A stretch of 64,000 nucleotides of DNA from a virus. This document shows positions 37,891-53,939 of the stretch, in pieces; position 1 is the first letter of the stretch; each line of letters begins with the position of its first letter. Location: positions 1 through 64,000 of IMG/VR virus record IMGVR_UViG_3300011113_000581, one strand, 5' to 3'. Below the pieces are notes generated by a model. That model was given only the letters and a program-made list of their open reading frames with translations, was not told the DNA's origin and ran no database searches. The position numbers and the translations under genes were made by a program.

Positions 37891-37919
37891 TAGGCAGTTT
37901 AACGTCATACCCAGGACGT
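37891..37919 (-). ncRNA. Family A pseudoknot element, copy 1
   Basis: ACGUC-C-UGGGUA-U-GACGU-UAAAC-UGCCUA. Confidence 0.8.
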
Positions 37920-38415
37920 TAGCTTACTCTTTAATTTGCTTAGCTTCTTCTTCCATAGTTTCTTCAAAAGTATATCGACGCCGTTTAATAGCGTCAGGGT
38001 TCTTTTCTTTTTGAATTACACGTGCATCTTCTGATGCAGCATACAACACCTCCTGGAAAGAATCCCAAACAAACTTAGGATCTTTTAAGTATCCAGTAAA
38101 TCCAAAAGCATCTAATGTAATAACATGTTGTTTAAGTAGTTCACAAAGCAAATCAGATTTACTTTGAACCAAATGCTTAAACTGTTCTTCGGGTAAATCG
38201 TAAGTATCAAGATTCATAACTAAAATCCTCATCAGGAAAAGCTTTTTCAATAGCAGCAGTTAATGCATCTATCATGAATTGTTTTTGCAATTGTTCTCCA
38301 AGGTTTGTCCACCACTGAAGGTCTGCATCTGTTTCATCCCATTCAATTTGAATAGTACCAGATCCATCTTCTTCAGAAGTGTATTTAATATTGAGTTTAA
38401 AAATAGAGTTTGAAT

Positions 38416-39435
38416 CTACGGTTGAGGCACAAAGTTCTGCTCTGTATTCTTTTTGGTTTTCCATGCATTAGATAGTTGAGGTAAGGCTGTCCCTGGGAAA
38501 GGAACAAAGCCATTGTCTAACATGTTATCAAAAAGATCCCATGCATTGTGTTGCGTAAATACTTCTTTAGGTTTGTAGGTTTTCCATGCAGGCAACGGAG
38601 CCATAGAACCATGTTTGGTATACAGAACAAGGAATCGACCTTTATCTGATTTACCTTCTGGTGGTGCGTACCACCAAGCCGTAGCATCTCTTGGTGCTTG
38701 ACCACGGCAATTGTTACGTACCTCAGTCCTTTTAACAAGAAGCTGACGATAACGTTTCATCCAAGTTAAGTGAATACACCAAGGTTGATACCCTTCAATC
38801 TCAGCCTGGAACTCAGACAAATTATTTAGTTGTCTTTGGAAAGAACCGCAAGAGCAGTATGGTGTTTTCTGAAGTTCTTTATTGCAATTAACTTCATTGC
38901 TTTCATTATCCTCACTTGGATCCAAATAGCTTTCATTAATGATGTGGAAACCGTCAGGGGCAACCAAATGTCCCAGGTCAGCCTGATCACTCTGTAAAAG
39001 TGTCTCAAGTTTAATCCGATCCGATATGTGAATAAATTTATCTGCCCACGAACGCTGAGCTTGCGCCGCAAACGAGAGGTGCCCAAGTGCGTGGCTGTAG
39101 TGCCAACCCTTGAACATGATGTATGCATTGTTATGCCAAATGGATGGACCACGGTAGTTAGGACCTAGGTAAGAGAAAAAGTCTTTAAGGCGAAAAGTAA
39201 ATTGCTGGTATGCAGCCTTGACTAAGTTCCTGTCATAAGTTTGCTCAGTACCATCGTTACGCACCACGATAACAGAATCATCTCGCAAATAAATTGCGGA
39301 GATTTCCGTGTCATCAAATTCCGGAAACGCACGTCTGATGTTACTCCGTGTGTAAATAATTTGTTGAGCCTGGTTAAGTTCTTTGATGAGTTTAGTGGTC
39401 ATAATTGAATTGAGTTTGTGTTGATTTCCTGACAT
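38416..39435 (-). CDS. SWIM zinc-finger protein
   Basis: CSCGSF...WCIH. Confidence 0.6.
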   Translation of the reverse strand: MSGNQHKLNSIMTTKLIKELNQAQQIIYTRSNIRRAFPEFDDTEISAIYLRDDSVIVVRNDGTEQTYDRNLVKAAYQQFTFRLKDFFSYLGPNYRGPSIWHNNAYIMFKGWHYSHALGHLSFAAQAQRSWADKFIHISDRIKLETLLQSDQADLGHLVAPDGFHIINESYLDPSEDNESNEVNCNKELQKTPYCSCGSFQRQLNNLSEFQAEIEGYQPWCIHLTWMKRYRQLLVKRTEVRNNCRGQAPRDATAWWYAPPEGKSDKGRFLVLYTKHGSMAPLPAWKTYKPKEVFTQHNAWDLFDNMLDNGFVPFPGTALPQLSNAWKTKKNTEQNFVPQP

Positions 39436-39651
39436 GCTCAGGATTTGGATTTAAATTTTTCAGCCTGGTACACACCGGTAGTAATTTTGTATGTACCAAA
39501 GACTGCTGTTGCAAGGGCGATGGGCGTGCCAATCATAGCAGCAATTCCACCTGCAATCAAACCAGTTGCAACTCCTGTAACAAACGCAACTTTTTCTTCA
39601 TGTTTCATTTGATTATTGTGAGTAGAATTAATTATCTTCAAATAAAAACTT

Positions 39652-39906
39652 ATGGAAGAAACTTACATTCCACTGCATAAGTTTGAAATAGATCCTTCAA
39701 TGGATGATTTGTTTTGGGAAGAAAAAATTAAACGTACAATTCAAGAGTGTAATTCGGTTAGTACTTTAAAAGAAATGGCAACCCTCTTGGCGAGGATTGC
39801 CACGCAACGTCAAGGTGTAATTCGTGGGTTAATCAAAGACATTCACGTTTTTAACAATATGTTAATTGATGTAAATGAAATTGCTAACCCAGAAATTAAA
39901 CCTTAG
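39652..39906 (+). CDS. Hypothetical protein, lone plus-strand gene in the early arm
   Basis: 84-aa ORF. Confidence 0.55.
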   Translation: MEETYIPLHKFEIDPSMDDLFWEEKIKRTIQECNSVSTLKEMATLLARIATQRQGVIRGLIKDIHVFNNMLIDVNEIANPEIKP

Positions 39907-41030
39907 AAACTGTAGTTTTCACCAGTATCAGGATCTTGTGCAGATGCAAGAGCTTTCACTTCGACATCTACATCTGCAGTTCTAGACACCGGAAGAATTT
40001 GTACACCTTCTTTGATTCCGTAAGCACCACCAAGACGTTGTGCATCTTGATATGCATGTTGGTTAATGTAGTCTACAAATATTTCTTGGCATTTCCAAGT
40101 TGATTCACGATCTTCATCAGGAATTGAAAGACGATTCAGTGATTCAATTGCATTTTCTTGAGAACTGTAATCAGGAATTTCAAAAGATTCGATAGCGCAG
40201 ATTTCAACATTATTAGCACCGCGCATTTCATTAGCAAGTACAGGTATAAACACCGTAGTAGCATAAAACTTTTCGTTAAATGCTAAAGGTACTTCAGCTC
40301 CTAACGCTTTACTTAAACACTTAGACATTTCTTTTTCATACAACTTAATTTTATCTGCTGCATCAGTACCATTCAAACCTTTGAGTGTTAGTACAATTGG
40401 AATCTTGTGCGCACGTTTGTTGTCCTGGGTCAGGATATAAACTAGATATTTAGTACGAACACTATACTTACGGCGGTACATTTCACCTTTGCTGTTAGCA
40501 AGATCAGATGCAACTTTATCTGCATCCCAAAGTTTTTTGATTTCAGGATCATCAAATGAACCAATTGTCTGTTTCATCCCTGTGGTTTCTTCTACCATCA
40601 AAGGAGAACGTAACAAAATTTGCATGCGTGGCTCAGTAAAATTCAAGCCTTCTTCAACAGAAGTATTAGGTGCTATACCAAAGGTTTGTTTGTAATTCCA
40701 GATAACTGAATCTTTAGCAAATTGATCTTCTGTTGCAGTCCATCCGCATGTATCTAAATCAATTTTGCGGACAAACCATCCACGTACTTTAGATTTGTTT
40801 AAAGGTTGAATTGTAACAATACCTTGATAGCCAGTAATAAACTCTTTAGATTGAAAAAGTTTAAAGGAATCAAGCCCTCTAGTTGCAATCGCAGATGTTT
40901 CCTTAGTAGCAAGTGCAGATGTTTTCTTAGTAGTCATAACTTTAGTCGGAAGTTTTTCAGAAATAGTTTCTTTGGTAGGCTCTTCAGTTGGATCAGGTTT
41001 TTTTAGTAGATCAAGGACTGATTCAGTCAT
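39903..41030 (-). CDS. Hypothetical protein, possibly replication/recombination related
   Basis: 375-aa ORF near SSB with acidic tail DPDTGE. Confidence 0.7.
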   Translation of the reverse strand: MTESVLDLLKKPDPTEEPTKETISEKLPTKVMTTKKTSALATKETSAIATRGLDSFKLFQSKEFITGYQGIVTIQPLNKSKVRGWFVRKIDLDTCGWTATEDQFAKDSVIWNYKQTFGIAPNTSVEEGLNFTEPRMQILLRSPLMVEETTGMKQTIGSFDDPEIKKLWDADKVASDLANSKGEMYRRKYSVRTKYLVYILTQDNKRAHKIPIVLTLKGLNGTDAADKIKLYEKEMSKCLSKALGAEVPLAFNEKFYATTVFIPVLANEMRGANNVEICAIESFEIPDYSSQENAIESLNRLSIPDEDRESTWKCQEIFVDYINQHAYQDAQRLGGAYGIKEGVQILPVSRTADVDVEVKALASAQDPDTGENYSF

Positions 41031-41050
41031 TGTGTTGTTGAGTTGGTGAG

Positions 41051-41079
41051 TGGGCAGTTTAACGTCGTACCTAGGACGT
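41051..41079 (-). ncRNA. Family A pseudoknot element, copy 2
   Basis: ACGUC-C-UAGGUA-C-GACGU-UAAAC-UGCCCA. Confidence 0.8.
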
Positions 41080-41354
41080 GCCTCACTCTAGATCAAGGTC
41101 AAGGTTTGGCTTAGGAAGATTAAAGGTTTTTAACAATTCATTGTTACGCTTTTCTTCTAAATCAAAATATTCTTCTGAGATAGAAGACATGTGTTCATAA
41201 ATTGCTTTGTTGTAATGACCACAACCAAGAAGAAAACAAACAAATTGATCAATGACATCAGTAACATACATAGAAGTAAGTGTATGTATTGTTGATCTAT
41301 CACCGTCAATATGTTTGAATTCAAAGTAATTAAACTGTTCTGTTTCAGTCATAA

Positions 41355-42170
41355 TCAAAAGGGAGGTTCGCCATCGTCATCTGTAGGAGAGTTTAGTGTA
41401 TAGCCTGGGAGGTCAGGCAGGTTGGTTCCCGTTTGGGCACCCCAAGGTTCAGCAAGATCTTCAGCGACCTTACCGCCCCACAGGCTAGCTACTCCAGTGC
41501 CAGATGCAACAGTTGTTTGTGGTTGAATAGATTTATTTTCGCTATTGTCTTTAGGTGACAAAGTCATAGATACCAATTGAATCTTGGTAGCAACTTTGCG
41601 CTCTTTAGTTTCTTTATCAGTCCAAGCATCAGTTACCAATCTGCCCTGGATCGTAAGACCTACACCTTTACGCGTGAAGTTAACAAGAAGTTCAGCATTG
41701 TTTAACTTATCTTCTGCAGTATTAATTGCATAGAAGTTAAACAGATCTGACTGATTTCTACCCATATAAACACCAAGGGTTTGATTGCAAATCATTAACC
41801 CATCCGGTGTAGTTTTAAATGCACGTGCATCATTTTGGTCGATGTCTTTAACACACCTTCCACTGAGAATGATTGTATTAAGGATTGGGAATGATGCGTC
41901 AACTTGTGTAACAATTCCTCCATGCAAGGAATACGTTTTTGTATTGATGTCGTATCGCAGCTTGGCGCCGTGAATGTAGATTTGTGCATTTGCTGGTACA
42001 CGGGCAAACCGTTCAGCAGCCTTGCCATAAACATTTAGTTGAATTGGAGTTGGTGCTTTATTACCTACTGGAGGCAACAACACATTACATACAGTTGCAA
42101 AAGAGCTTTCGCTAATTGCTTTTTCTTTAGGTGCTTCAGTTGTCTGGGCACAAAGGAATGAAAGATTCAT
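41355..42170 (-). CDS. ssb: Single-stranded DNA-binding protein with two OB-fold-like halves
   Basis: IILSGR, RKGVGLTIQGRLVTDAWTDKET, acidic tail DDDGEPPF; start moved to ATG 42170. Confidence 0.8.
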   Translation of the reverse strand: MNLSFLCAQTTEAPKEKAISESSFATVCNVLLPPVGNKAPTPIQLNVYGKAAERFARVPANAQIYIHGAKLRYDINTKTYSLHGGIVTQVDASFPILNTIILSGRCVKDIDQNDARAFKTTPDGLMICNQTLGVYMGRNQSDLFNFYAINTAEDKLNNAELLVNFTRKGVGLTIQGRLVTDAWTDKETKERKVATKIQLVSMTLSPKDNSENKSIQPQTTVASGTGVASLWGGKVAEDLAEPWGAQTGTNLPDLPGYTLNSPTDDDGEPPF

Positions 42171-42190
42171 TAGATTAAACAGTTGGTGGT

Positions 42191-42219
42191 AAAACAGTTT
42201 AACGTCATACCTGGGACGG
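42191..42219 (-). ncRNA. Family A pseudoknot element, copy 3 (upstream of ssb)
   Basis: CGUC-C-CAGGUA-U-GACG-UUAAAC-UGUUUU; weak stem 2. Confidence 0.7.
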
Positions 42220-42223
42220 TACA

Positions 42224-44089
42224 TCAGTGTGTATCAAACCAGGTGTAGCCTACCTTAGCATCGCCATCGATAGGACAACGGAAGTTAAAGAAGTGTTGAG
42301 CTTTTGGAAAAGCTTCCAATGCTACAGACTTAAGTGTATCCGTTAGCTCTGGTTTGCAAGCCAACTGGACTTCATCATGGATCATAGCTGCTTGTTGCCA
42401 ATCAATACCATGGACATAACCAAGTTCATCCATATCTGTATGAATGTTAATAACAACTTGTTTCATAATTAATGCACCTGCTGATTGCAATAAAACATTC
42501 AATGCTTTGAAATCAGACCTGCAATAAAGAATACGTTTATCTAAACCACGCAACCAGTTATTTTGTTGTAGTGTTTTTGCAAGATGTTCTTTAAGTTTAC
42601 GTAGTGCTGGGACACCATCCATGAATGAATTAATTGCAGTACTACCTAGTTTGCGCAGTATTATTTCATTTTTTTCATTCGGATCAATAACAGTTCCTGC
42701 TTTAAGTGCACCGGCTCCATAGGCTACAGCGTATAGAAGACGCTTTGAAATATCTCTGGTAGCTACACCAAAACGTTCTTGATTATAAACATGAATGTCG
42801 ATTGATTCATCTGTTACTACACGTGCGTACTCACCGTTATCCCAGTATGCAAGATAACCAGCAAGACACCTAAGTTCCAAAGCTTTGGCATCTACACCAA
42901 TTAACTCCCAACCATCTGGTGCATGAAACAAAGATCTACATTCTTTACCATAGGGTGAATATGCTGCTGGCACTTGAGCCATATTTGGATCACGATGGCT
43001 ACAACGTCCAGTAATACAACCATTAGTTATTACATCACCATGTACACAACCAGTGTCATTATTAACTAACTTAAGCCAAGCATTTTTACCATCAGCAATT
43101 TGACCAAGACGTTTCTCAATCAACATATATTCAGCTAAAGGTTTGGCTTCTGGATACGGAAGCTTTTCAAGTACGTCATCATCAAGGACAGGGTTTCCTT
43201 TTTCAGTTGACTTACTTGGTTTCCATCCATATTTTTGTTGGAGCCGCTGAACAATTTGCTGTCTGGATCCAGGATTAAATTCTTCCAGTCGAACTTTTTC
43301 AAACGGAACTCCTTTTACATAACCACGTGCTTTGTTATTAACCTTTGGTATAAATACTTCTTTATGTTCAATAGGTGGAAAAATTTCTTTTAGATGTGTT
43401 TGTAGTTCTGTTTCTTTTGCTCTGAGACTATCCACCAGATCAAGAGCTGCATCCACATCAAAAGGAAAACCTGCTCGCACTTGTGACTCAATACATCTAG
43501 CAAAGTCATGTTCAAGCTTAAGTGCTGGCTCTGGATAGTTTTGATTTTGAATTTTTTCAAATAATTTTGTAGTAACTGCAACGTCTTGCCTACAATACTC
43601 AGCCATTGCTTCCGAGTATTCTGAGAAGTCTTTGAAGTCAATCTTGTAATCAGCCAACCGATAGCCCCATGCCTTAAGTGAGGCTGAACCACGGAGATTC
43701 TTTGGAACCTCCGTATATTGTTCTTCATCAAGTTCATAAAGTTTTTCTTTGGGCCAAATGAGTCGAGTACAAATGAGTGTGTCAATAACTCGTGCAGCTT
43801 TAAACGTATAAAACGGATAGAGCTTACGAATTACAGGCAAGTCGTAGAACAAGATGTTATGGCCAATGAGCACATGAGCCCGAGCCAAATGCTCGAGACC
43901 ACTAGCAATATCATCAGGCCCATAAGTAAAAGTTTGTTTTCGCTGGACATCATACAGTACCAAGCAATGTATCTTTGTAACCTTGTCATAAAGATTATCA
44001 GTTTCTAAATCAAACACATACCAGTTCTCAACCTCTGAACTTGCCTTCAGCGGAAACTTCAAGGTTTTGACTAGCGAGGTCTGTGTCAT
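42224..44089 (-). CDS. polA: Family A DNA polymerase, T7-like, with 3'-5' exonuclease
   Basis: FDLETD, GHNILFYD, YCRQDV, DAKALELR, KRLLYAVAYGAG, HDE. Confidence 0.95.
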   Translation of the reverse strand: MTQTSLVKTLKFPLKASSEVENWYVFDLETDNLYDKVTKIHCLVLYDVQRKQTFTYGPDDIASGLEHLARAHVLIGHNILFYDLPVIRKLYPFYTFKAARVIDTLICTRLIWPKEKLYELDEEQYTEVPKNLRGSASLKAWGYRLADYKIDFKDFSEYSEAMAEYCRQDVAVTTKLFEKIQNQNYPEPALKLEHDFARCIESQVRAGFPFDVDAALDLVDSLRAKETELQTHLKEIFPPIEHKEVFIPKVNNKARGYVKGVPFEKVRLEEFNPGSRQQIVQRLQQKYGWKPSKSTEKGNPVLDDDVLEKLPYPEAKPLAEYMLIEKRLGQIADGKNAWLKLVNNDTGCVHGDVITNGCITGRCSHRDPNMAQVPAAYSPYGKECRSLFHAPDGWELIGVDAKALELRCLAGYLAYWDNGEYARVVTDESIDIHVYNQERFGVATRDISKRLLYAVAYGAGALKAGTVIDPNEKNEIILRKLGSTAINSFMDGVPALRKLKEHLAKTLQQNNWLRGLDKRILYCRSDFKALNVLLQSAGALIMKQVVINIHTDMDELGYVHGIDWQQAAMIHDEVQLACKPELTDTLKSVALEAFPKAQHFFNFRCPIDGDAKVGYTWFDTH

Positions 44090-44261
44090 TTTCAAGAATC
44101 CATTGCAAGATCTGCGCTGCACCAACGCGATACGGATGACAAAAAACTTTTGACAAATCCGAATCAGATTCTACAGGAATCAAAACAAATTTGTTTGTTT
44201 CTAAATCAGCACGTACACAGTAATTAACACCATCTTTACATGTTGAAATAACGTACGACAT
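44028..44261 (-). CDS. Hypothetical protein
   Basis: 77-aa ORF. Confidence 0.55.
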   Translation of the reverse strand: MSYVISTCKDGVNYCVRADLETNKFVLIPVESDSDLSKVFCHPYRVGAAQILQWILENDTDLASQNLEVSAEGKFRG

Positions 44262-44337: not shown

Positions 44338-45108
44338 TTATTTTTTGTAACCAGTCCATTGACCATTCTTACGTCTAGCTGCCAATGCTTTGGATGCTTC
44401 GGAGCCAGCACGCTGAACATTATGAACAAGTAAAGCAAAAGAGCTGGGACCAAAGCAATGACTGTCATCGTGGTCAATCTCAAGTCCCATTTGCTCAGCT
44501 TGTTTTTCTGTGTATACAACATAAGCTACACGATAAAAAACTTCTGGATACCTGGGAATTAAATAGTCAAGCGTACCGCCAACCGATGCAGTCAAATAAA
44601 AGTTATCCGGGATTACATGACGTGATTCATACCACATACCCAAAGATTTTGTGTAGGCATAAAACTTGATATCAGGATTTTGCCTAGCAACCTGGAGCCA
44701 GGCACGGAAATACAATTCAGTATAAAAATCACCACTCTCATGCACACGTACAAGATCACAAGGTTCACGTACAGGTTGTGCAGCTTGAATAGAGTCATGA
44801 ATAAGTTGAGTTAGTAATGTAAGTTTTTCTTCTGGTCGATCAACAGAATACATTACTTCTTTAATCAGATCCCAGTTACTCCAACGTGATTCGCGTACGC
44901 CTGGCCTAGTTTCTGCCATTGCAGCAAAGCAACGATAGTCTTGCCAGCTTGGCCCGTTCTCTTGTGGCAGATCAGTAATCTTCCCTGTGGTGCGATCAGC
45001 CATTGTCTTACACACACCAGCGTGTGGACAAGAATAACCTGCTGGCAAACTAAAAATCAAACGTTTACCAAGTTTGGCATTACCTGTGGAAAAGTTAAGT
45101 AAGTTCAT
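44338..45108 (-). CDS. Gene product 88 (GP88)-like protein
   Basis: GNAKL..FSLPAGYSCP, CFA, RVHESGDFY, FYAYTKS. Confidence 0.75.
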   Translation of the reverse strand: MNLLNFSTGNAKLGKRLIFSLPAGYSCPHAGVCKTMADRTTGKITDLPQENGPSWQDYRCFAAMAETRPGVRESRWSNWDLIKEVMYSVDRPEEKLTLLTQLIHDSIQAAQPVREPCDLVRVHESGDFYTELYFRAWLQVARQNPDIKFYAYTKSLGMWYESRHVIPDNFYLTASVGGTLDYLIPRYPEVFYRVAYVVYTEKQAEQMGLEIDHDDSHCFGPSSFALLVHNVQRAGSEASKALAARRKNGQWTGYKK

Positions 45109-45129
45109 AGTTGTGTTGAGTTGAGTGAA

Positions 45130-45157
45130 CAGGTAGTTTAATGTCATACCCAGGACA
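45130..45157 (-). ncRNA. Family A pseudoknot element, copy 4
   Basis: UGUC-C-UGGGUA-U-GACA-UUAAAC-UACCUG; compensatory changes. Confidence 0.8.
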
Positions 45158-45179: not shown

Positions 45180-45527
45180 TTAAATATGTTTCCAAGCATC
45201 ATATCTGAGTATGCGATTGATATGTGATTGAGACATCCCAAAAACTTTTGCAAGTTCTGTAGATGTTGCACCTTGTTTAGACATTGTTCTTAATCGAATA
45301 ACATCTTGTTCTTGTAATACAGCGGCATGGTTACTAACACTCTGTTGCTTTTGTGTTACAACTTTATGTTTATTAAGTATGTCAGCTTTAACTAAATAAT
45401 ACTTTTCAATAGTTCTAAATTTAAATTTACAATTGTTACAAACTAACCAACGATGAATTTCTGTTGGTGTTTGTTCTGTTGATTTAGTACGTGTCTTTTG
45501 TTGACACTTTGGACAAGTTAAGTTCAT
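45180..45527 (-). CDS. Zn-ribbon (NrdR/Ogr-like) plus HTH protein
   Basis: CPKC...CNNCKFKFRTIE; ELAKVFGMSQSHINRI. Confidence 0.7.
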   Translation of the reverse strand: MNLTCPKCQQKTRTKSTEQTPTEIHRWLVCNNCKFKFRTIEKYYLVKADILNKHKVVTQKQQSVSNHAAVLQEQDVIRLRTMSKQGATSTELAKVFGMSQSHINRILRYDAWKHI

Positions 45528-47594: not shown

Positions 47595-47623
47595 AAAAGA
47601 AAGACCCCCGTTTACACGGGGGC
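47595..47623 (-). terminator. Rho-independent terminator
   Basis: Minus strand CCCCCG-TGTAAA-CGGGGG then TCTTTCTTTT. Confidence 0.7.
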
Positions 47624-47646
47624 TGGCTTGCACTTCGTTAGTTAGT

Positions 47647-48003
47647 TTAAGCTGCTTGAGCACTGGTGTCAATGATGTTATCCATCATGCCAGCCTCACG
47701 CATTTTATCTAGCATTGCGCACATAACAGTTGCATGCTCATGTGTTTTATCCATAAAAGCTTTGGCACGTTCAGCAGTAATGGTATGAACGGTACCATTA
47801 GCTTCAATGTATTGCCAGCTACCATCAGGCATTGGCTGCCCTTGGAGCGCAAGACGTTCTGAGTTACGTACGTACCTGAACTCAAGATTGTGACAATCAG
47901 TAAGACCGTCTACATCAGTCCAAGTTAGGCCAAGATTGTAACGCTTATCCTCATCCATGTAACCATGGGGCTGAGGAATAAGATGTTTGAAGTAGGAAAG
48001 CAT
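47647..48003 (-). CDS. Hypothetical protein
   Basis: 118-aa ORF between a family B element and a terminator. Confidence 0.7.
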   Translation of the reverse strand: MLSYFKHLIPQPHGYMDEDKRYNLGLTWTDVDGLTDCHNLEFRYVRNSERLALQGQPMPDGSWQYIEANGTVHTITAERAKAFMDKTHEHATVMCAMLDKMREAGMMDNIIDTSAQAA

Positions 48004-48031
48004 GGTTTTAAATTAAGTGTGGATTGGTACC

Positions 48032-48059
48032 CTGGGACTTATACCTTACGGATGCCCAG
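48032..48059 (-). ncRNA. Family B internal-loop hairpin, copy 1
   Basis: CUGGG-CAU-CC-GUAA-GG-UAUAAGU-CCCAG. Confidence 0.75.
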
Positions 48060-48062
48060 TTT

Positions 48063-48563
48063 TTATGTTACATATTTATTATTAAGAATATAATGCAATG
48101 TTCCTTTAGAACTAATATTAAATTTTTCCATTAAAGCTTTATATCCTAAACCATTTGAATGATCGTTTTTAATCTGATTAATTTGATCTTTTGTGTATTT
48201 GCGTATACAACTTGATGCTTTAATTGCATGATTCAATCGTTGTTTTGAACATCTGTCTAACATGTTTTCTGTTTGAGTTCCAATGCAAATATTGTCAAAC
48301 GAATTATCTTTACTATTTCCATTTAAATGTCTAACAACTATGCCAACTTCAAATAATTTTTCTTGATATTTTTCATACGCAACTAAACGATGCAGAAATA
48401 CTTTATGTGTTTTTGTACTTATTTTTAAATTAAAAAATAAATAGCCAGACTGAGAGCAACTTAATTTTAAAGGTTCTTTCTTGCGAATACCATAAACAAT
48501 ATTATTTTTTACTCGATAGCCTTTTCGATAAGCACATATTAAAGCGGTTTGAGCTTGATTCAT
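48063..48563 (-). CDS. HNH homing endonuclease
   Basis: HRLVA...VRHLNGNSKDNSFDNI.IGTQTEN; start ATG 48563 just after the tRNA. Confidence 0.85.
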   Translation of the reverse strand: MNQAQTALICAYRKGYRVKNNIVYGIRKKEPLKLSCSQSGYLFFNLKISTKTHKVFLHRLVAYEKYQEKLFEVGIVVRHLNGNSKDNSFDNICIGTQTENMLDRCSKQRLNHAIKASSCIRKYTKDQINQIKNDHSNGLGYKALMEKFNISSKGTLHYILNNKYVT

Positions 48564-48578
48564 AAATAATAAAAAGAC

Positions 48579-48653
48579 TGCCGACGACAGGATTCGAACC
48601 TGCACTTGAGTGATTTTAAGTCACTTACCTTCTTCCAATTGGGTTACGTCGGC
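48579..48653 (-). tRNA. trnL: tRNA-Leu(UAA), short variable loop, CCA not encoded
   Basis: GCCGACG/CGTCGGC acceptor, AGTGA-CTTAAAA-TCACT anticodon arm, GCAGG-TTCGAAT-CCTGT T arm, discriminator A. Confidence 0.9.
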
Positions 48654-48911
48654 ATTACTTGGATTTACACTCACATCTATTGATGTGTGATACCAAGTGT
48701 GATCATGAGGTAATGGTTCACAGCCGTAGTCCCACGTATCGTAATCATCTTCGTTACGTGGATCCTCAATCAATATGTATTGAGGTGAATGATCATGGAT
48801 GTATTCACCAAGGTTTGCCATGGCCATGGCAAGTAATTGTTCGTCTGTGTAGTTAGTCATTGGGTGTGACCCGCCCTATTGTCGAGGATAGGACGGGTCA
48901 GCCTGTGGGGG

Positions 48912-50666
48912 CTATGCAGATGCTAGCGCAGATTCGCGTTTGGTCAACGCTTTACTGAAAGCAGTTGTGTAAAGCTCACGTTCCTCATCCGTAAGCCTGG
49001 CATTACCAATACCAGCGATCTGTTTGACAGACATCATACCCATGTTTACTTCTAGTTGAATGGTAAACATTGGTTTGCCATCAATCATGCACAACACAAT
49101 GAAGTGTTTCTTTTTACGAACACCATCTGCATAACCACTGGCACTACCGACGCAATTACGTACGGCTTGTCCCCAAGCAGCTAGTTGATGCGTGTCAACT
49201 GGCTGGAAGAATGTCCACTTGCTGGAACCAAGTTCAAGTTTGACTGGTTCAGGAAACAAATCTTGGGGTAGTGATTCATTTTTGTTCTTAACTTTCCAGG
49301 CAACAGATTGGATGTGATCATGGAACTCCATAAGTCTCCAACGTTTTGGAACGTCAAGAGTCAATGGTTCTGTTGCGCACTCGTTGTGTGCAAGTACAGT
49401 ATCTAACATTGAAATAGTATCACCCCAGTTGGAATAATAAAAACGTGGATGCTGCAATTCTTCATCGTAAGTAAAACGAGTACGTGTGCTATTCATTTCT
49501 TTATCATATTCTTTTTCAAGGATAGAAAAGAAAGAAGCAACAGGCATATGTTTGTTTAACCAAGCTTGTGTTAGAAGTGAGCCATAACGTGTTGATTGAA
49601 AACTCAACAATTGATTAATGTGAGATTGATAATAATCAATAGGGCAGTTAGGCCAAACTTCATACACCCAATTAATCGTATTAAACAAAACATGGATTTG
49701 AGACCATGGTGCACGAATAGATTTAAGCAGTTGATTTTTAGAATTATAAAAGCTTGCATTAACTTCATCACATTTTGCTTGAATCCATTTTTTGAAGAAT
49801 GGAGTAGCAATAATGTGTAGTAGTTTATTTAGCCTTCGATAAATATCACCGTCATAACCACTACCGTGTGCATAGTGAGTAATAAGTTTGAACAATAAGT
49901 CATATGAAATTACAGCTTTAGTAATGTCATGTTGCTGCCAATAATCTTTGCATTGGTGTCCGTAACGATAGTCATTAGTAAAGATTACGCAAGCTGGATT
50001 GATTGCCTGGAGCCGAGCAAAGGTTGATCGACTATCAGACCACATAGGAATAGTGTTAAACAGTTGATCTTCAAATCCTTTTAGTTGTTGAGACAAGTTG
50101 CCAGACTTTTTATAATAGCTTTGAACACTTGGAATGTTCCAGTTTTTAGCATCGTGACCATCAATAATATCTTGTTTAGTTACTAGTTCGTTGTATGTAA
50201 AATATTGAACTCGACCAACATGATATGTAAATAGTTTGTTTGGATTGTCAATATTTAAATGTTGACGAATCTTATGTGGAAGCATCCTGTGTGCAGATGC
50301 ATTGTCTTTGAATGCATATGAGTAGCCATAAACATATTGATTTTCTTGTCCTTTGGGTGGTAACCATGCTGCATACCACACTTGCTCAAAGTGATACAAG
50401 ATTGCGTACGGTGTTACTACACGATCAATAATTCGTGTGAACAGTTGATAACGATCAGGTGCTGCCTGTGAGTTAATATTGTCAATAGCATCGTTATACA
50501 ATGATGCTGGCAATACTTCAGTTGGAATAAGTTGATTAGGTTTACCTAGTGGATGTGTAGCTTTCTTAGTTTTGTTAGTTGTTTTCTGCTGTTTAGCCAA
50601 TGCTTTAAGAGCTGGGTCATACGCCATCAACTCTTGTTGCAGTTGAGCAGGAAGACGGAATTGCAT
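48912..50666 (-). CDS. PcfJ-like domain protein
   Basis: C-terminal EFHD...GQAVRNCVGS..Y...FTIQL...QIAG..N. Confidence 0.65.
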   Translation of the reverse strand: MQFRLPAQLQQELMAYDPALKALAKQQKTTNKTKKATHPLGKPNQLIPTEVLPASLYNDAIDNINSQAAPDRYQLFTRIIDRVVTPYAILYHFEQVWYAAWLPPKGQENQYVYGYSYAFKDNASAHRMLPHKIRQHLNIDNPNKLFTYHVGRVQYFTYNELVTKQDIIDGHDAKNWNIPSVQSYYKKSGNLSQQLKGFEDQLFNTIPMWSDSRSTFARLQAINPACVIFTNDYRYGHQCKDYWQQHDITKAVISYDLLFKLITHYAHGSGYDGDIYRRLNKLLHIIATPFFKKWIQAKCDEVNASFYNSKNQLLKSIRAPWSQIHVLFNTINWVYEVWPNCPIDYYQSHINQLLSFQSTRYGSLLTQAWLNKHMPVASFFSILEKEYDKEMNSTRTRFTYDEELQHPRFYYSNWGDTISMLDTVLAHNECATEPLTLDVPKRWRLMEFHDHIQSVAWKVKNKNESLPQDLFPEPVKLELGSSKWTFFQPVDTHQLAAWGQAVRNCVGSASGYADGVRKKKHFIVLCMIDGKPMFTIQLEVNMGMMSVKQIAGIGNARLTDEERELYTTAFSKALTKRESALASA

Positions 50667-50693
50667 AGTGAGTTCGGAGTGAGTGTGTGGTGT

Positions 50694-50723
50694 TGAGCAG
50701 TTTAACGTCATGCTCAGGACGTT
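50694..50723 (-). ncRNA. Family A pseudoknot element, copy 5
   Basis: AACGUC-C-UGAGCA-U-GACGUU-AAAC-UGCUCA; both stems fully Watson-Crick. Confidence 0.85.
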
Positions 50724-51494
50724 GGATCAGATGCGCATTATTTCTTCACCATTACGGGTAAAGACAATGGCATCATCATAATCATCCATGTACTCTTGCA
50801 AAGTCATGGTCTTGTCTGGTGTAAAGACAGGCATCTGGTTTGCAAACCCAAATGCACTATATACACGACCTTTAGGACCACGGATAACAAGGTACCAACG
50901 TTTAAATTCAATAGAGAAACCAATCATGATTAATAGTAATCAGAGTTGTCTACAACGATAGGATGCCACTGGAGACCCAAGCTGTTAAGGTAGTCAATAA
51001 AGCTGCCTTCGTTAGTTGGAATAGTTTGGTCAGCATCAACATAGAAAGATGCTTGACATAATCCAGGAACATATTCAGGTGGATCAATATGCGTTGCTTG
51101 ATATTTGAGATGTGCATCTTCAACCATTGCAGTAACTGTGACATGATCATCTTTGATGGTTGTTTCTTCAATTGAAATAATTGACATGAGTAGTGTGAAT
51201 AGATGAAGTGTTGTTGTTACTAATAGTATCTACGTGGTACAGGTTTTGAGGGGGGTCCTAGGGGGGATTATTTGTTTGCAGTAGTTAGTTGCTCTGTTTT
51301 AGCAAACATTCCATTAGGACCATACTTCTCAACAACATCAGGAAATGTGTCGAGTAAACGCTGACGGTTTTTAGGATCTGCATATCGGAGAGCAAGTCCC
51401 AATGCAGAGATGAATGAACCACCCATAGTTTCCATACGGGTGACAAGTTCAGTGAATTGAATTGGTGTCATAGTTGTTAAGGTTGAGGTGAATG

Positions 51495-51533
51495 CTGGGA
51501 CTTACACACTATACTTACGTTAGTGATGCCCAG
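51495..51533 (-). ncRNA. Family B internal-loop hairpin, copy 2
   Basis: CUGGG-CAU-CACUA...UAGUG-UGUAAGU-CCCAG. Confidence 0.75.
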
Positions 51534-51540
51534 TGTTTCT

Positions 51541-51744
51541 TTAAAATAATTTAATATTTCGTTTACTCAATCCTGTGCCTGGGATACTAATAGATCCAAG
51601 GACACCAGATTTGCGAGCGTTAAGTGTTAGCTGGAATGGACCAAGTTTGAATGATTTGGTATACGATTTGATACCATGTTCAGTTAAGTTAAAGCCAGCG
51701 ATAGTGCGGTCAAAGTTAATAGGTGATTTCTTTGTCATTACCAA
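51541..51744 (-). CDS. Small basic protein (DUF4236-like)
   Basis: KSFKLGPFQLTL...SISIPGTGLS. Confidence 0.55.
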   Translation of the reverse strand: MVMTKKSPINFDRTIAGFNLTEHGIKSYTKSFKLGPFQLTLNARKSGVLGSISIPGTGLSKRNIKLF

Positions 51745-52660
51745 TCTCCATTACTAAAAGATTGAGTTACAACAAATGAAAGACTAAAAGCTTCTTCTTC
51801 AATTTCATTATCATCTGGTGTATAGTATCGAGCTTCAAAGCCACCAGATCCTGTTGTCTTACATTCAATAGCTCGATATAAAAGATTACGACATGAATTT
51901 TTCATGCGATTAATAGTTGGTACAGAGTGACCAGGCTCACCAATTGTATTAACCCATTTCCAATCCAAGGCATGCATTGTAATCAAAACTTTCTCAAAGT
52001 TAAAACGTTCGAGAAGATCTTCGATGAGTTCGGATTGATGATCAGTAATTGTGAAAGTCATACTGATTTAATGAATTGAATGATTAAGTATGTGCCACAT
52101 ATAAAGAATGTGCACAATACAAATGCTTCAGGCCAGCTCATGGTTTGTTGTAGATAGTTCCTTTACGTTTGTAAAGGTCAAACCCTTCCATTGTCTTGGT
52201 GTCAAGAAATGTCCAAGGCCCAATGTTGGCACAGCCAATTAAGTAGTAGAACCGATAGAAGCCTGGGTTTTCATCCCACTCTTCATCGGTACACATGAGT
52301 TTAGATCCAACGCCAAGACTATTCTTGCGTTGGGTAACCCATATGTCACCTGGCTGAGCAGGCAGGTGACGTGTATTAGGTTGAGTCTTTGTTTGAGTCT
52401 TTGGTTTAGTTATGGTCATTGCAGATCTCCAGGTATGAGTGCATTGGTGTCTTCATCAGACATATTTGTCATAACAAATTTATTTCCATCGGCGTCTACA
52501 AAGCCGCCGACAAAACCAATACCATGTCGATCAGCAGATTCTTTCATCTTGGCAACGATTGACATAGCTTGCAATCGCTGACTATCAATTGCATCAGGGA
52601 TGCGTGGTTTAGGTGCGTCGTTAAGTGCGGTCATAGTGAATTAAGTGTGGAATAGTTGAG

Positions 52661-52705
52661 CAAGCTGGGACTTACACGCTTTCTGTCAGAACGATGCCCA
52701 GCTTG
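52661..52705 (-). ncRNA. Family B internal-loop hairpin, copy 3
   Basis: CAAGCUGGG-CAU-CG...CG-UGUAAGU-CCCAGCUUG. Confidence 0.75.
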
Positions 52706-52803
52706 TGTTCATAAGCTTACTACTCTCTGTCAAGGGTAAGCACCCCGTTCATGAGTTGTAACACTCACGTTGAGGGTGAAAGCTTATTGAGAATAGTTCG
52801 CAA

Positions 52804-53127
52804 TTACCGATGCATCTCTTGATGTTCTTTCCATGCAGCGGCATGCATCTCAGCCATGGTAATAGGTGGTTCACCATAAGAATCTTCTGGCTCACCAGGC
52901 CATTCAATTGCTTTCTCTAGGTAGCCAATAGCTTCCAATAGATATTCATCTGAACCATACGGAAGATCGTTGTATCCCATAGGACGTTTCTCTTCTCGTT
53001 GGTAGATAGCTTTAAGTTCTTCGATGATTAGCGTGATGCGCATATCATCGTTGAGGCGTGGGGTGTATTCACTGCCATCGTGACGAGTATACGTCTGGCT
53101 AGTGAAGTAAAGTTCGTGTTTGCCCAT
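52804..53127 (-). CDS. Hypothetical protein
   Basis: GEPPITMAEMH..AWK. Confidence 0.65.
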   Translation of the reverse strand: MGKHELYFTSQTYTRHDGSEYTPRLNDDMRITLIIEELKAIYQREEKRPMGYNDLPYGSDEYLLEAIGYLEKAIEWPGEPEDSYGEPPITMAEMHAAAWKEHQEMHR

Positions 53128-53155
53128 AGTGTGATTGCTGTAGGTTTGGGTTGAT

Positions 53156-53196
53156 GCTGGGACTTACACCACGTACTTATGTAGTGGATGCCCAGC
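53156..53196 (-). ncRNA. Family B internal-loop hairpin, copy 4
   Basis: GCUGGG-CAU-CCAC...GUGG-UGUAAGU-CCCAGC. Confidence 0.75.
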
Positions 53197-53261
53197 TTGT
53201 AGTATTGGCACTATTACCAATACATGGGTAGTATTGGCAAATCTTACGTGCTATTCAATAT

Positions 53262-53615
53262 TTAAATTAGACCAAGCAATGAGAGCCAGGAGTCTGGATG
53301 GTCGGGTTCTACTTCGTCATCACCTGGGGTGAAACAGACTGAGTCGAACGCCCACTCCTCAATGTCCTCGTTGCTTGGGATTTCGTACCAACCCTGGAGG
53401 TCTTCGTCAGCGTACTTGGGTTTCCAGTAGAGCTGGAGTACGCCATGCTTGTCGCGGTAAACGCTGCCGTTTTTGGGGTAGGTGCTGAGGTCTCCAAGCT
53501 TGATTCCCTTTGGATCAAAGGTGATGTCAGCTTGGAACTGCTCTGTTCCTTCTTCTTCTGAGAAGGGAACATAACCGAAGGACTCAGCGATTTGTTGGGT
53601 GACGGGGTGAAGCAT
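53262..53615 (-). CDS. Hypothetical protein
   Basis: EEW..DSVC.TP..D.VEPD...SWL..LGLI. Confidence 0.65.
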   Translation of the reverse strand: MLHPVTQQIAESFGYVPFSEEEGTEQFQADITFDPKGIKLGDLSTYPKNGSVYRDKHGVLQLYWKPKYADEDLQGWYEIPSNEDIEEWAFDSVCFTPGDDEVEPDHPDSWLSLLGLI

Positions 53616-53910
53616 AAGATTAGTTCTGTGATAAGGATGGAAATGATTGCGATGATGTGAATAAACACATCGTCTTCATGTTGTGTAATTGGTTGATTAG
53701 TCATAGTTAGAAATTACGTAACGTTCGTTGTAATAATCACAAGCATTGCGTTCGGCACTAGAGATTTCATCAATGCCATCCCATTCGCTTTGCTCGGATT
53801 CACGCATAGCTTGCTCTTGCTGGTACGCAAAATCAGCCCATGCATCTAGAAAATCTGCATTGTAGTTCTCATCAAATGGTTGAGTTGTCATGCAATGAAT
53901 TGACAAAGGA

Positions 53911-53939
53911 CTAAGCAGTTTAACGTCATACTCAGGACG
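53911..53939 (-). ncRNA. Family A pseudoknot element, copy 6
   Basis: CGUC-C-UGAGUA-U-GACG-UUAAAC-UGCUUA. Confidence 0.8.

Follow-up and report, generated by a model that had tools for sequence, protein, structure and literature searches.

What function is served by a short element that recurs just 5' of replication-region genes in a lake cyanophage? The window analysed here is a stretch of 64,000 nucleotides from a virus record of 88,133 bp, and six copies of the element lie within it. An SSB-controlled regulon, a nuclease block and a very small ligand sensor had been offered as functions in the initial annotation. The reading that we favour, at a little under even confidence, is that each copy is a protein-independent roadblock to machines moving 5'→3' on RNA, which would protect and insulate the downstream cistron.

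Six copies in the replication region

The window was scanned with the pattern YGTCCNNNNNNYGACRTTAAAC, tolerating at most one mismatch, and the chance expectation was obtained from 100 shuffles. Six matches were returned, all on the minus strand and each with 0 mismatches, against a shuffle expectation of 0.00; their cores lie at 37897-37918, 41057-41078, 42197-42218, 45136-45157, 50700-50721 and 53918-53939. On the minus strand, which is the sense strand, all six match NGUC-C-(6 nt)-H-GACN'-UUAAAC-(6 nt complement) exactly, and each element spans 28 nt once the 3' strand of stem 2 is added to the core. The full record holds these six copies only, on one strand. The six family copies of the initial annotation were thus recovered, and five of its start coordinates held, while 53911 was off by one. 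The elements, the genes behind them and a divergent variant are as follows.

53912..53939, minus strand: pseudoknot copy 1, CGUC-C-UGAGUA-U-GACG-UUAAAC-UGCUUA; covariance model 43.7 bits, E = 6.9e-9; stem 2 6/6 paired, two pairs being G·U
53697..53911, minus strand: leader (20 nt, 53892-53911) and 64-aa ORF (ATG 53891) with no match in Pfam or PHROG
50694..50721, minus strand: pseudoknot copy 2, CGUC-C-UGAGCA-U-GACG-UUAAAC-UGCUCA; 47.1 bits; stem 2 6/6, all Watson-Crick
48912..50693, minus strand: C/A-rich leader (27 nt, 50667-50693) and 584-aa ORF (ATG 50666) with a PcfJ-like domain (Pfam PF14284, 1.2e-6)
45130..45157, minus strand: pseudoknot copy 3, UGUC-C-UGGGUA-U-GACA-UUAAAC-UACCUG; 36.9 bits; stem 1 outer pair U-A, stem 2 6/6
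44338..45129, minus strand: leader (21 nt) and 256-aa ORF (ATG 45108) of the GP88 family (Pfam PF17338, 1.8e-41)
42191..42218, minus strand: pseudoknot copy 4 (ssb copy), CGUC-C-CAGGUA-U-GACG-UUAAAC-UGUUUU; 35.7 bits; stem 2 5/6 paired, three pairs being G·U
41355..42190, minus strand: leader (20 nt) and SSB gene, 271 aa (ATG 42170); Pfam PF00436 (bacterial OB-fold family) and phrog_44, 3e-26
41051..41078, minus strand: pseudoknot copy 5, CGUC-C-UAGGUA-C-GACG-UUAAAC-UGCCCA; 40.2 bits; stem 2 5/6 paired, one A·C
39903..41050, minus strand: leader (20 nt) and 375-aa DUF5895 ORF (ATG 41030; PF19247, 1.1e-11)
37891..37918, minus strand: pseudoknot copy 6, CGUC-C-UGGGUA-U-GACG-UUAAAC-UGCCUA; 44.7 bits; stem 2 6/6 paired
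37754..37890, minus strand: leader (23 nt) and 37-aa hydrophobic ORF (MFETLLGIVI…, ATG 37867), its start kept in relatives
56485..56514, minus strand: divergent variant, CGUC-(9-nt loop UAGCUGAUG)-GACG-UUAAAC-CGUAGCA, 5' of a 75-aa ORF (56230-56457)

Three copies begin 5 nt past a stop codon: copy 2 behind the TGA of a 66-aa ORF, the ssb copy behind the DNA polymerase gene and copy 6 behind a TAA. Copy 5 begins 4 nt past a TGA. A gene for a small Zn-ribbon/HTH protein (45180-45527) adjoins copy 3.

Structure, placement and spread

Stem 1 of the element is a 4-bp helix (NGUC/GACN'), loop 1 is a single invariant C, and stem 2 pairs the hairpin loop with the 6 nt immediately 3' of UUAAAC over 6 bp. 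The helix junction contains one unpaired nucleotide, which in the phage lineage is U, C or A but never G, and the invariant UUAAAC crosses stem 1. In a set of 45 instances that was assembled by DNA-polymerase homology, without use of the motif, both UUAAAC and the C at position 5 are present in 45/45. Thirteen positions are invariant, including the unpaired C5, A19-A21 and C22 around the helix junction, and the sequence of stem 2 is free. The outer pair of stem 1 is C-G, U-A, G-C or A-U among relatives.

The predicted helices are short and energetically marginal. For covariation, 119 distinct instances, taken without filtering from phages both related and unrelated, were compared with 500 shuffles. 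Paired cells made up 89.4% against 77.8% in the shuffles and double-sided changes numbered 156 cells against 49.6, with 0/500 shuffles as high in either case; likewise 0/500 equalled the observed covariation score. Both stems covary, compensatory changes occur in all six stem-2 pairs, and with the 3' partner moved 1 to 3 columns out of register only 22-49% were paired. G·U or U·G cells outnumbered A·C or C·A cells by 117 to 35, which places the structure on the sense strand. The element is thus a compact H-type RNA pseudoknot, with the 1-nt loop 1, covarying stems and invariant linker that the initial annotation had described; the ssb copy does have the weakest stem 2, as it had also noted.

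A seventh copy had been placed at 56486. It is a conserved variant, since it is identical in the closest relative (G006) and a shorter-loop form occurs in a second (G008). It retains CGUC/GACG (strands at 56511-56514 and 56498-56501) and UUAAAC, with GACGUUAAAC at 56492-56501, and lacks the C at position 5. Its stem 2 reaches at most 4 bp (GCUG/UAGC) and has no covariation support in these two relatives, and it escapes the covariance model, scoring 10.9 bits (E = 1.9) where the six copies reach 35.7-47.1 bits.

Placement was scored in 42 of the 45 distinct instances of this phage lineage. The gap from the upstream stop to the knot was exactly 5 nt in 22/42 and 2-11 nt in 34/42, while the distance from knot to ATG was 19-22 nt in 28/42 and 19-30 nt in 39/42, with 25-30 nt in 11 instances and 47-52 nt in 2. 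Both distances look like minimum values imposed by the footprint of the ribosome, which would be expected of a knot that has to stay folded. The leaders contain 4.3% G compared with 20.8% genome-wide, and no Shine-Dalgarno sequence was found in those of the served genes; in the window they are 20-27 nt long and C/A-rich. Other Shine-Dalgarno-less genes of the same phage have a different structured cassette or none. Among the ssb copies of relatives the leader is always 19-20 nt and the upstream gap ranges from -14 to 76 nt; because the one is fixed and the other variable, the knot belongs to the downstream gene.

The motif is also found in many unrelated phages, in Firmicutes prophages and in anaerobe operons of Omnitrophota, Planctomycetes and Desulfobacterota. 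At least 5/6 stem-2 pairs were formed in 110/138 IMG/VR matches and 105/127 bacterial-genome matches, where a hand calculation gives a chance level of about 3%. In each of the Firmicutes prophage cases tested (4/4) the gene immediately behind the knot encodes the head scaffold, a protein that, like the phage SSB, is needed in bulk. Between knot and start these prophages have 35-60 nt that contain further hairpins and an ordinary Shine-Dalgarno sequence. Prophages of Enterococcus, Ruminococcus, Bacillus and Clostridia have the terminator-like hairpin and T-run of the upstream gene 0-10 nt before the knot, and one bacterial copy (L224) has such a hairpin and T-run directly 3'. At 57 anaerobe loci the motif is internal to a transcript equipped with a promoter, a Shine-Dalgarno sequence and an ORF of its own; this class is followed by Rrf2 regulators and stress-type genes. 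An outer helix that covaries pairs the 5' flank with the Shine-Dalgarno sequence in Erysipelotrichaceae and Bacilli, and in the former it looks like a switch. No Rfam family matches the motif, and our literature search found no report of it in phages or bacteria.

Likeness to coremin and alternative readings

Coremin (xrRNA-C), reported as the 20-mer GUCCGAAGACGUUAAACUAC (PMC10520033), comes from RNA viruses of plants and fungi and resists Xrn1; GUCC and GACGUUAAACU are common to it and the phage consensus. In the published model (PMC10321173) it is an H-type pseudoknot: hp1 supplies stem 1, the essential pyrimidine nt 5 forms loop 1, loop nt 6-8 pair with spacer nt 20-18 to give stem 2, and the groove of stem 1 is occupied by adenines; spacer A16-A20 is reported to be essential (PMC6546385). 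The phage element has the same layout, its equivalent of the nt 6/nt 20 pair covaries, and it is a long-stem-2 version (6 bp) of this fold. According to the same literature coremin needs no protein to stall Xrn1 one nucleotide 5' of hp1 (PMC10520033, PMC10321173), and in the BNYVV context 8-nt loops are still resistant (PMC10520033).

That the knot acts on ribosomes instead, with nuclease protection secondary or absent, is unlikely, though the least so of the alternatives. It could keep ribosomes that are terminating or scanning from drifting on into the next cistron, which would uncouple neighbouring ORFs, or be a standby or positioning element that loads 30S subunits on the Shine-Dalgarno-less leader just downstream. 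Coremin, again without protein, is reported to block scanning ribosomes and stimulate -1 frameshifting (PMC10520033, PMC10321173), and a knot exactly 5 nt past the stop would face a terminating ribosome where the mRNA enters it. None of the served genes has a Shine-Dalgarno sequence, and most have their ATG 19-22 nt 3' of the knot, but the spread of longer distances shows a lower bound and no fixed ruler. RNase J was not found in 7/15 motif-bearing genomes, and at 55/57 anaerobe loci a conserved small ORF enters the knot and stops inside it, which points to action on ribosomes there. Against this stand the hairpins and normal Shine-Dalgarno sequences behind the prophage knots and the other Shine-Dalgarno-less genes of the same phage, which do without the knot.

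An operator for an RNA-binding protein, whether the phage SSB in the manner of T4 gene 32 or another phage or host protein, is improbable. By binding to the invariant GUC/GAC and UUAAAC, such a protein would control the six genes as a regulon, through repression or activation. Thirteen invariant positions beside a free stem-2 sequence are what protein-recognised RNAs have, the T4 gp32 operator also starts with a pseudoknot of about 28 nt (PMC535899), one of the knots does stand before ssb, and a Zn-ribbon/HTH gene is at hand next to copy 3. However, the SSB regulon of the initial annotation is not supported, as just 1/6 copies precedes ssb, and this SSB is of the PF00436 type, not the gp32 type. 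For the T4 operator, an unstructured stretch of over 40 nt that carries UUAAA/UAAA repeats is reported to be necessary (PMC535899), whereas the window leaders are too short and lack UUAAA repeats. The same invariant positions recur in the unrelated phages, prophages and anaerobe operons and also in eukaryotic RNA viruses, for which protein-free action of the element is reported (PMC10520033, PMC6546385). No one phage protein can be shared by all of these.

There is also little to recommend protection of the upstream cistron, in which an endonuclease would cut the leader and the knot, at the fragment's 3' end, would block 3'→5' exonucleases. The knot does follow the upstream stop closely, the G-poor single-stranded leader behind it could be cut, and the terminator-like hairpin behind copy L224 fits. 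Yet it is the distance to the downstream ATG that is kept while the upstream gene and gap vary, and in the prophages named above the upstream gene already has a terminator-like hairpin and T-run of its own before the knot. Coremin activity is, moreover, described as directional, against 5'→3' enzymes (PMC10520033, PMC6546385).

A very small riboswitch, in which a ligand at the helix junction (C5, nt 12, C22) would stabilise the knot in a preQ1-I-type manner, is quite improbable. An H-type pseudoknot of some 30 nt can serve as an aptamer, the invariant unpaired nucleotides encircle the junction, and the outer helix of Erysipelotrichaceae and Bacilli and the Rrf2 and stress-type genes of the anaerobe class would suit a sensor. 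The window copies, however, have no expression platform overlapping the ribosome-binding region, the motif matches no Rfam riboswitch, a phage may carry up to 6-7 copies, and the served genes are unrelated in function (SSB, GP88, PcfJ-like, DUF5895, small ORFs, and scaffold proteins elsewhere). The homologous coremin is reported to need no ligand (PMC10520033, PMC6546385).

An untranscribed DNA promoter element, named in the initial annotation as a possible refutation, is itself largely refuted; in this reading TAAACU would be a -10-like hexamer used by the RNA polymerase of the host or by a phage factor. A conserved 22-bp core 40-55 bp 5' of start codons, the fit of TAAACT to TAnnnT, a consensus hit TTGACT-17-TAAACT at copy 3 and the motif's position after terminator-like hairpins in several Firmicutes prophages favour it. 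But covariation of the loop with the 6 nt after UUAAAC makes no sense at the DNA level, the G·U excess and the copies inside transcripts or a small ORF speak for RNA, and the same core works in RNA-virus genomes. A conserved -35 region is missing (positions -11 to 0 vary), and the 33 promoter-like hits of the region do not exceed the shuffle mean of 44.2.

The proposed roadblock

Of the functions in the initial annotation the nuclease block is the best supported, through the core match to coremin, and it is because of this match that shielding of the downstream message is proposed. A pseudoknot alone is insufficient, since ordinary frameshifting pseudoknots are reported not to stop Xrn1 (PMC10321173). 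Coremin and its Watson-Crick variant strictly require a second hairpin, hp2, just downstream for resistance to Xrn1 (PMC6546385, PMC10321173), whereas no hp2-like hairpin was found just downstream of the six window copies (nested-folding z-scores -1.4 to +0.8, G-poor leaders); the 6-bp stem 2 may substitute for it.

Which enzyme would be blocked was approached through RNase J, scored as TIGR00649 above its cut-off in 15 motif-bearing genomes. It was present in 8/15, among them 5/5 Firmicutes genomes, and in 0/4 Omnitrophota genomes, which are MAGs and may be incomplete. Because it was found in only 8/15, RNase J cannot be the sole or universal target. A flaviviral xrRNA is reported also to halt bacterial RNase J1 in vitro (PMC5760640), and the cyanobacterium Synechocystis is reported to possess RNase J (PMC12464536).

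For this cyanophage, we propose that the knots lie in a polycistronic early/replication mRNA transcribed from the minus strand and form mechanical barriers that need no protein. Decay begun upstream, by RNase J of the cyanobacterial host (5'→3' exonuclease) or by 5'-end-dependent scanning of RNase E, would halt at a knot, and the stable product would consist of the knot, the 20-27-nt unstructured C/A-rich leader and the ORF. Given its placement, neither the upstream terminating nor the downstream initiating ribosome would need to melt the knot, and neighbouring cistrons would therefore be insulated from each other as well.

Copies and covariation of the pseudoknot

The element is a 28-nt H-type RNA pseudoknot, here called the knot. 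The six copies proposed in the initial annotation were recovered as six exact matches on the minus (sense) strand, against 0.00 expected, and a search of the whole 88,133-bp record returned no further exact copies elsewhere. As RNA, each copy has the layout N-GUC / C / 6 nt / U or C / GAC-N' / UUAAAC / 6 nt complementary to the first 6. All six pairs of stem 2 are present in four copies and five of the six in two; the copy ahead of ssb, which had been singled out as the weakest in stem 2, is indeed the weakest, being 5/6 paired with three G·U pairs. The copies referred to individually are:

42191-42218 (-), knot ahead of ssb (the ssb copy)
45130-45157 (-), knot ahead of the GP88-family ORF (copy 3)
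56485-56514 (-), seventh, divergent copy

A lineage search that fixed only NGUC-N8-GACN-UUAAAC, run on this virus, 17 relatives and Synechococcus phage S-EIV1, gave 49 instances, 45 of them distinct in context. Across these 45, positions 2-5, 11, 13-15 and 17-23 were invariant and position 12 was never G. The linker, described initially as an invariant UUAAAC, was constant as UUAAACU in 45/45 instances, while stem 2 was free to vary, with a purine-rich 5' strand facing a pyrimidine-rich 3' strand. Scanning IMG/VR for GTCC-N7-GACGTTAAAC returned at least 136 stretches, and at least 5/6 stem-2 pairs were present in 110 of the 138 matches listed, compared with a chance level of about 3% that we calculated for random sequence.

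Covariation was measured on 189 instances among the matches listed, which reduced to 119 distinct sequences and were left unfiltered. The pairing tested was ((((.[[[[[[.))))......]]]]]].., with 500 shuffles as control. Paired cells amounted to 89.4% (77.8% in shuffles), both-side changes to 156 cells (49.6 in shuffles) and the covariation score to 0.404 (0.185 in shuffles), each value being reached in 0/500 shuffles, a control that takes no account of kinship, applied to sequences drawn from many unrelated contigs. When the 3' partners were slid by 1-3 columns, pairing fell to 22-49%. The compensatory changes claimed for stem 2 occur at all six of its pairs in the 119 sequences, and those claimed for stem 1 are seen at its outer pair (C-G 75, U·G 26, U-A 6, A-U 1, G-C 1). 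Wobble cells numbered 117 for G·U/U·G and 35 for A·C/C·A; since a wobble read from the opposite strand would be a mismatch, it is the sense-strand RNA that folds. When the knot was folded with its leader under a nested model, z-scores were -1.4 to +0.8, but such a model cannot represent pseudoknots and is hence mute on the knot. The case for the predicted pseudoknot is thus a comparative one, not a thermodynamic one. We consider it very probable indeed that the motif is a real structure, namely a pseudoknot like that of coremin, the Xrn1-resistant RNA of eukaryotic RNA viruses.

The seventh copy had been counted with the other six, and the comparison bears this out in part. It keeps CGUC/GACG and UUAAAC; its loop is 9 nt, C5 is missing and stem 2 has at most 4 pairs. 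A covariance model trained on the 119 sequences gave the six copies 35.7-47.1 bits and the seventh 10.9 bits (E = 1.9). The closest relative carries the seventh copy unchanged, and in a second relative its loop is 6 nt long with the GCUG/UAGC pairing kept; no covariation was seen within this copy across the relatives compared. The seventh copy is a conserved variant.

Leaders and genes served in the virus and its relatives

The record, of which the window is the first 64 kb, is rated 100% complete. In a protein search its family-A DNA polymerase was 74.4% identical to that of S-EIV1 (KJ410740), and the next phage matches reached at most 45.5%. The same polymerase was used to fetch the relatives, 17 IMG/VR contigs. 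Megablast with 8.2 kb of window sequence as query gave no match among GenBank phages. Since the closest cultured relative is S-EIV1, which itself carries at least three knot copies, the host is most likely a freshwater cyanobacterium. Contigs of one sequencing run, probably of DNA, held just short pieces of relatives with no ends of use, and have no bearing on expression.

The genes from about 36 to 57.5 kb lie in minus-strand orientation, and within the window the knot copies precede a 64-aa ORF, a 584-aa PcfJ-like protein, a 256-aa GP88-family protein, a 271-aa SSB, a 375-aa DUF5895 protein and a 37-aa hydrophobic ORF. Among the lineage instances, the gap between the upstream stop codon and the knot was exactly 5 nt in 22/42 and 2-11 nt in 34/42. 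The distance from knot to ATG was 19-22 nt in 28/42 and 19-30 nt in 39/42, and the served genes always started with ATG. Leaders contain 4.3% G, compared with 20.8% for the genome, and therefore hold no Shine-Dalgarno sequence. Both distance distributions resemble walls, not rulers; they may mark the closest approach of a terminating or an initiating ribosome to a knot that needs to stay folded. When the genes downstream were compared across relatives, the ssb leader kept to 19-20 nt in every case, but on the upstream side both the gene and the gap (-14 to 76 nt) varied. The knot is thus tied to the gene downstream.

Several further features were observed in the window:

45180-45527 (-), gene for a 115-aa protein, directly upstream of knot copy 3
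48032-48041 (-), 51495-51504 (-), 52665-52674 (-) and 53157-53166 (-), second leader cassette, each with about 40 nt upstream
48579-48653 (-), tRNA gene, 62.6 bits
57629-61300 (+), 1223-aa ORF, first in the gene block of opposite orientation; without a match in Pfam or PHROG
31165-31201 (+), abiF RNA motif match (RF03085), 49.7 bits (gathering score 37)

The 115-aa protein begins with a zinc ribbon and ends with a helix-turn-helix that resembles sigma-70 region 4 (Pfam E = 3e-5, narrowly missing the cut-off). The second cassette runs CUGGGCAUC, variable hairpin, UAAGUCCCAG, and its CUGGG is able to pair with CCCAG; downstream of each lies a C/A-rich leader of about 28 nt without a Shine-Dalgarno sequence, followed by ATG. 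Its TAAGTCCCAG has 4 exact matches, and 10 when one mismatch is allowed (3.27 expected).

Comparison with known RNAs and spread outside the lineage

Searching full texts for the core string led to the coremin literature. In BNYVV, cucumoviruses and many further RNA viruses of eukaryotes, the Xrn1-resistant RNA is coremin (GUCCGAAGACGUUAAACUAC) (PMC10520033, PMC6546385). Carriers of it as xrRNA-C, or of the Watson-Crick variant xrRNA-WCC, include beny-, cucumo-, chryso-, hypo- and other eukaryotic RNA viruses (PMC6546385, PMC10520033, PMC10321173). It stalls Xrn1 one nt before its first hairpin, hp1, in vitro and without protein; the hp1 stem (GUC/GAC) needs 3 bp or more and tolerates swapped pairs, structure outweighing sequence; the loop consensus is YGAD (4 nt) or YGNNAD (6 nt); and A16-A20 of the spacer UUAAACUAC are essential (PMC6546385, PMC10520033). 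Nucleotide 5, which forms loop 1, must be a pyrimidine, normally C with U tolerated, and a small stable hairpin directly 3' of the spacer, hp2, is strictly required for Xrn1 resistance (PMC6546385, PMC10321173). Coremin has been modelled as an H-type pseudoknot in which nt 6-8 pair with nt 20-18 as stem 2 and adenines are placed in the stem 1 groove; the same authors isolated the Watson-Crick variant, which supports the model, and an A20C mutant that creates the nt 20 pair stays resistant (PMC10321173). An octaloop variant is Xrn1-resistant in the BNYVV context (PMC10520033).

The phage element shares with coremin the blocks GUCC and GACGUUAAACU in the same layout. Both have an hp1 of 3-4 bp whose pairs may covary: GUC/GAC of the hp1 type is present in 45/45 homology-derived instances, and the fourth pair is C-G, U-A, G-C or A-U. 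Loop 1 is a single pyrimidine in both, and C5 was found in 45/45 phage instances although the search left that position unconstrained. Common to the two are also the antiparallel pairing of the loop with the nucleotides after UUAAAC and an A-rich linker. Both are often sited a few nt past a stop codon, as in SPlV5, where the coremin copy lies 8 nt after the last ORF (PMC10321173).

One difference lies in stem 2, which has 2-3 partly non-canonical pairs in coremin but six Watson-Crick or wobble pairs in the phage element, being lengthened by a loop 4 nt larger than coremin's. The 8-nt phage loop, C-[U/C]-R-R-R-Y-A-[U/C/A], does not keep YGAD/YGNNAD and has only the first Y and the penultimate A in common with it. 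At the position of coremin's essential A20, the 45 phage instances have G (36), A (7) or U (2), which covaries and pairs with loop nt 10. Unlike coremin, the cyanophage copies lack hp2, no consistent hairpin being present in the six leaders; in several Firmicutes prophage copies hairpins do occur 5-12 nt after the knot. The long stem 2 may stand in for a short stem 2 with a stacked hp2. The setting differs too: the carriers here are a dsDNA phage and bacteria, the site is a 5' leader between cistrons rather than a 3' UTR, and the phage's host has no Xrn1. The literature searched, supplements of the coremin papers aside, held no report of the motif in phages or bacteria; in PMC10520033 the strings 'phage' and 'bacteri' occur 0 times, as do 'bacteri', 'prokaryot' and 'RNase J' in PMC10321173.

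Other RNAs compare less closely. In the pistol self-cleaving ribozyme an A-rich stretch follows the hairpin P1. Pistol has a short P1 whose 6-nt loop forms a 6-bp pseudoknot, and it is frequent near phage genes (PMC4604425), so that it shares with the knot both a P1-like hairpin with a 6-bp loop pseudoknot and the neighbourhood. However, its pseudoknot partner lies between P2 and P3 (PMC4604425), whereas the knot has no P2, P3 or cleavage site. The Rfam pistol model gave no match to copies at E up to 10 (five of our own loci) or 1 (20 IMG/VR loci). More generally, no Rfam 15 family was found at the motif in the window (gathering threshold), in the five own loci (E up to 10), in the 20 IMG/VR loci (E up to 1) or in 20 bacterial loci (gathering threshold), only a neighbouring DUF2800 RNA at two loci. 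A tRNA-like 3' end (NCCA after stem 2) was also considered, as several leaders start with ACCA, and was rejected, since CCA is not fixed in the position-specific counts.

Beyond the lineage, scanning prokaryotes at one genome per species gave at least 127 distinct instances, with at least 5/6 stem-2 pairs in 105 of the 127 listed. In Firmicutes prophages the knot lies directly 5' of a head-scaffold gene (4/4 tested, from two scaffold families), often 0-10 nt behind a terminator-like hairpin with a T-run; a later hairpin and then a normal Shine-Dalgarno sequence follow. Given that upstream hairpin, the prophage knot RNA would need to arise by terminator read-through or processing. A GC-rich hairpin of this kind before the knot and a head-scaffold gene after it were noted at loci L164, L165, L174, L028, L191 and L210. 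In two IMG/VR loci, L140 (151-321, 107.4 bits) and L090 (72.2 bits), the DUF2800 RNA (RF02960) begins 6 nt downstream of the knot, which may be an unrecognised 5' module of that RNA. By eye, the same arrangement was seen in L206, L248, L254, L265 and L267.

In Erysipelotrichaceae and Bacilli MAGs (L167, L168, L200, L223, L232, L240, L247 and L276), a covarying outer helix that encloses the knot pairs the knot's 5' flank with the Shine-Dalgarno sequence, for example AUACCU…AGGUAU, or GUACCUCA…UGAGGUAC. At these loci C·A alternates with U·G at one stem-2 pair, and the 74-76-aa protein whose Shine-Dalgarno sequence is covered had no Pfam or PHROG match.

An anaerobe class makes up 57 of the loci listed (L162-L283), from Omnitrophota, Planctomycetales, Desulfobacterota, Peptococcaceae and others. 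These loci carry a conserved small ORF (…YMLRPVAHCKEGC…, about 25-29 codons), with a TTGACA resembling a promoter element and a palindrome ahead of it. In 55/57, judged from the printed peptides, this ORF extends into the knot and terminates there, at UGA (nt 12-14) or UAA (nt 18-20). By its N-terminus the next gene is Rrf2-like in 31/57, one being confirmed by Pfam (PF02082, 2.7e-32). Other next genes have starts like those of hybrid-cluster protein or desulfoferrodoxin, again from N-termini only. The small ORF and the knot could together be a leader-peptide/knot sensor.

Candidate functions and significance

By analogy with known systems, our preferred but tentative reading, to which we give slightly less than even weight, is that the knot acts as a roadblock and a stabiliser for the downstream cistron. 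It would obstruct machines that move 5'→3' on RNA. The 5' mRNA stabilisers known from Gram-positive bacteria and their phages hold up RNase J1 with terminal hairpins or stalled ribosomes and are not known to have a common sequence. The knot is proposed to work alike, as a structured or occupied 5' edge that would shield the downstream message from 5'→3' decay, and use for highly expressed genes is common to both; unlike the B. subtilis-type stabilisers, it is a conserved pseudoknot with 13 invariant positions across phyla. A flaviviral xrRNA is able to halt the bacterial enzyme RNase J1 in vitro (PMC5760640), and RNase J is reported in a cyanobacterium (PMC12464536). RNase J was found in 5/5 motif-bearing Firmicutes genomes tested; in other motif-bearing genomes it passed the family cut-off in 3/10, including 0/4 Omnitrophota (these being MAGs, in which absence is not proof). 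The case for it as sole target is weakened, 7/15 motif-bearing genomes having no match over the cut-off. Since a match is lacking in so many of them, RNase J is not the general target; in this phage's host it is a plausible one.

The main rival is a role directed at the ribosome. Coremin also blocks scanning ribosomes and stimulates -1 frameshifting (PMC10520033, PMC10321173), and the anaerobe loci show that the motif is transcribed and met by ribosomes. A riboswitch is a weak alternative, since a genome carries six copies ahead of genes that have no relation to one another and the window holds no expression platform. Protection of the 3' end of the upstream gene is likewise improbable, for the knot is associated with the downstream gene and separate terminators lie upstream.

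The initial annotation had raised, among other readings, an SSB regulon on the model of T4 gene 32. Like the phage element, the gene 32 pseudoknot crosses a long stem 2 with a loop 1 of one nucleotide. That operator and the window's ssb copy both place a pseudoknot of about 28 nt before a phage ssb gene, where an unstructured leader begins. Past its pseudoknot, the T4 operator (of the T4/RB69 gene 32 type) requires over 40 nt of unstructured RNA, in which UUAAA/UAAA repeats extend to the ribosome-binding site, and it serves gene 32 only (PMC535899). By contrast, the leaders here are 20-27 nt, C/A-rich and without Shine-Dalgarno or UUAAA repeats; 5/6 window copies serve genes other than ssb; the window SSB is PF00436 and phrog_44, not of the gp32 type; and the motif has spread far past SSB-encoding phages. 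With ssb behind 1/6 copies, and neither the long UUAAA-repeat leader nor the restriction to gene 32 seen here, the regulon is not supported.

An untranscribed promoter element, also raised at the outset, is contradicted by the 117 G·U against 35 A·C cells, by the lack of a conserved -35 or upstream hexamer and by the motif lying inside transcripts and ORFs in bacteria; promoter-like sequences in the region were not above shuffles. The NtcA site is GTA-N8-TAC. A similar site in the motif (GTC-N8-GAC) was set aside as unlikely, because the distance to any -10 element is much less than activation needs and the covariation at the RNA level is against such a site.

Returning to the roadblock reading, its widest form is somewhat more doubtful again. 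The coremin fold would not be confined to eukaryotic RNA viruses but be an ancient portable roadblock that dsDNA phages and bacteria have too, and the first class of exoribonuclease- and ribosome-resistant RNA in prokaryotes. Phages would use it to punctuate operons into separately stable, separately translated messages (SSB; the Firmicutes head-scaffold), and anaerobes as a leader-peptide ribosome-stalling sensor before Rrf2-type regulators.

The hundreds of natural variants with a 6-pair stem 2 provide covariation evidence for the pseudoknot that is missing from the plant-virus work. They raise the question of how the same 15-nt core reached both plant and fungal RNA viruses and dsDNA phages. 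The finding suggests that phages and bacteria control segmental mRNA stability and insulate cistrons with a 28-nt module, which, if so, would be a useful compact stabiliser or insulator part.
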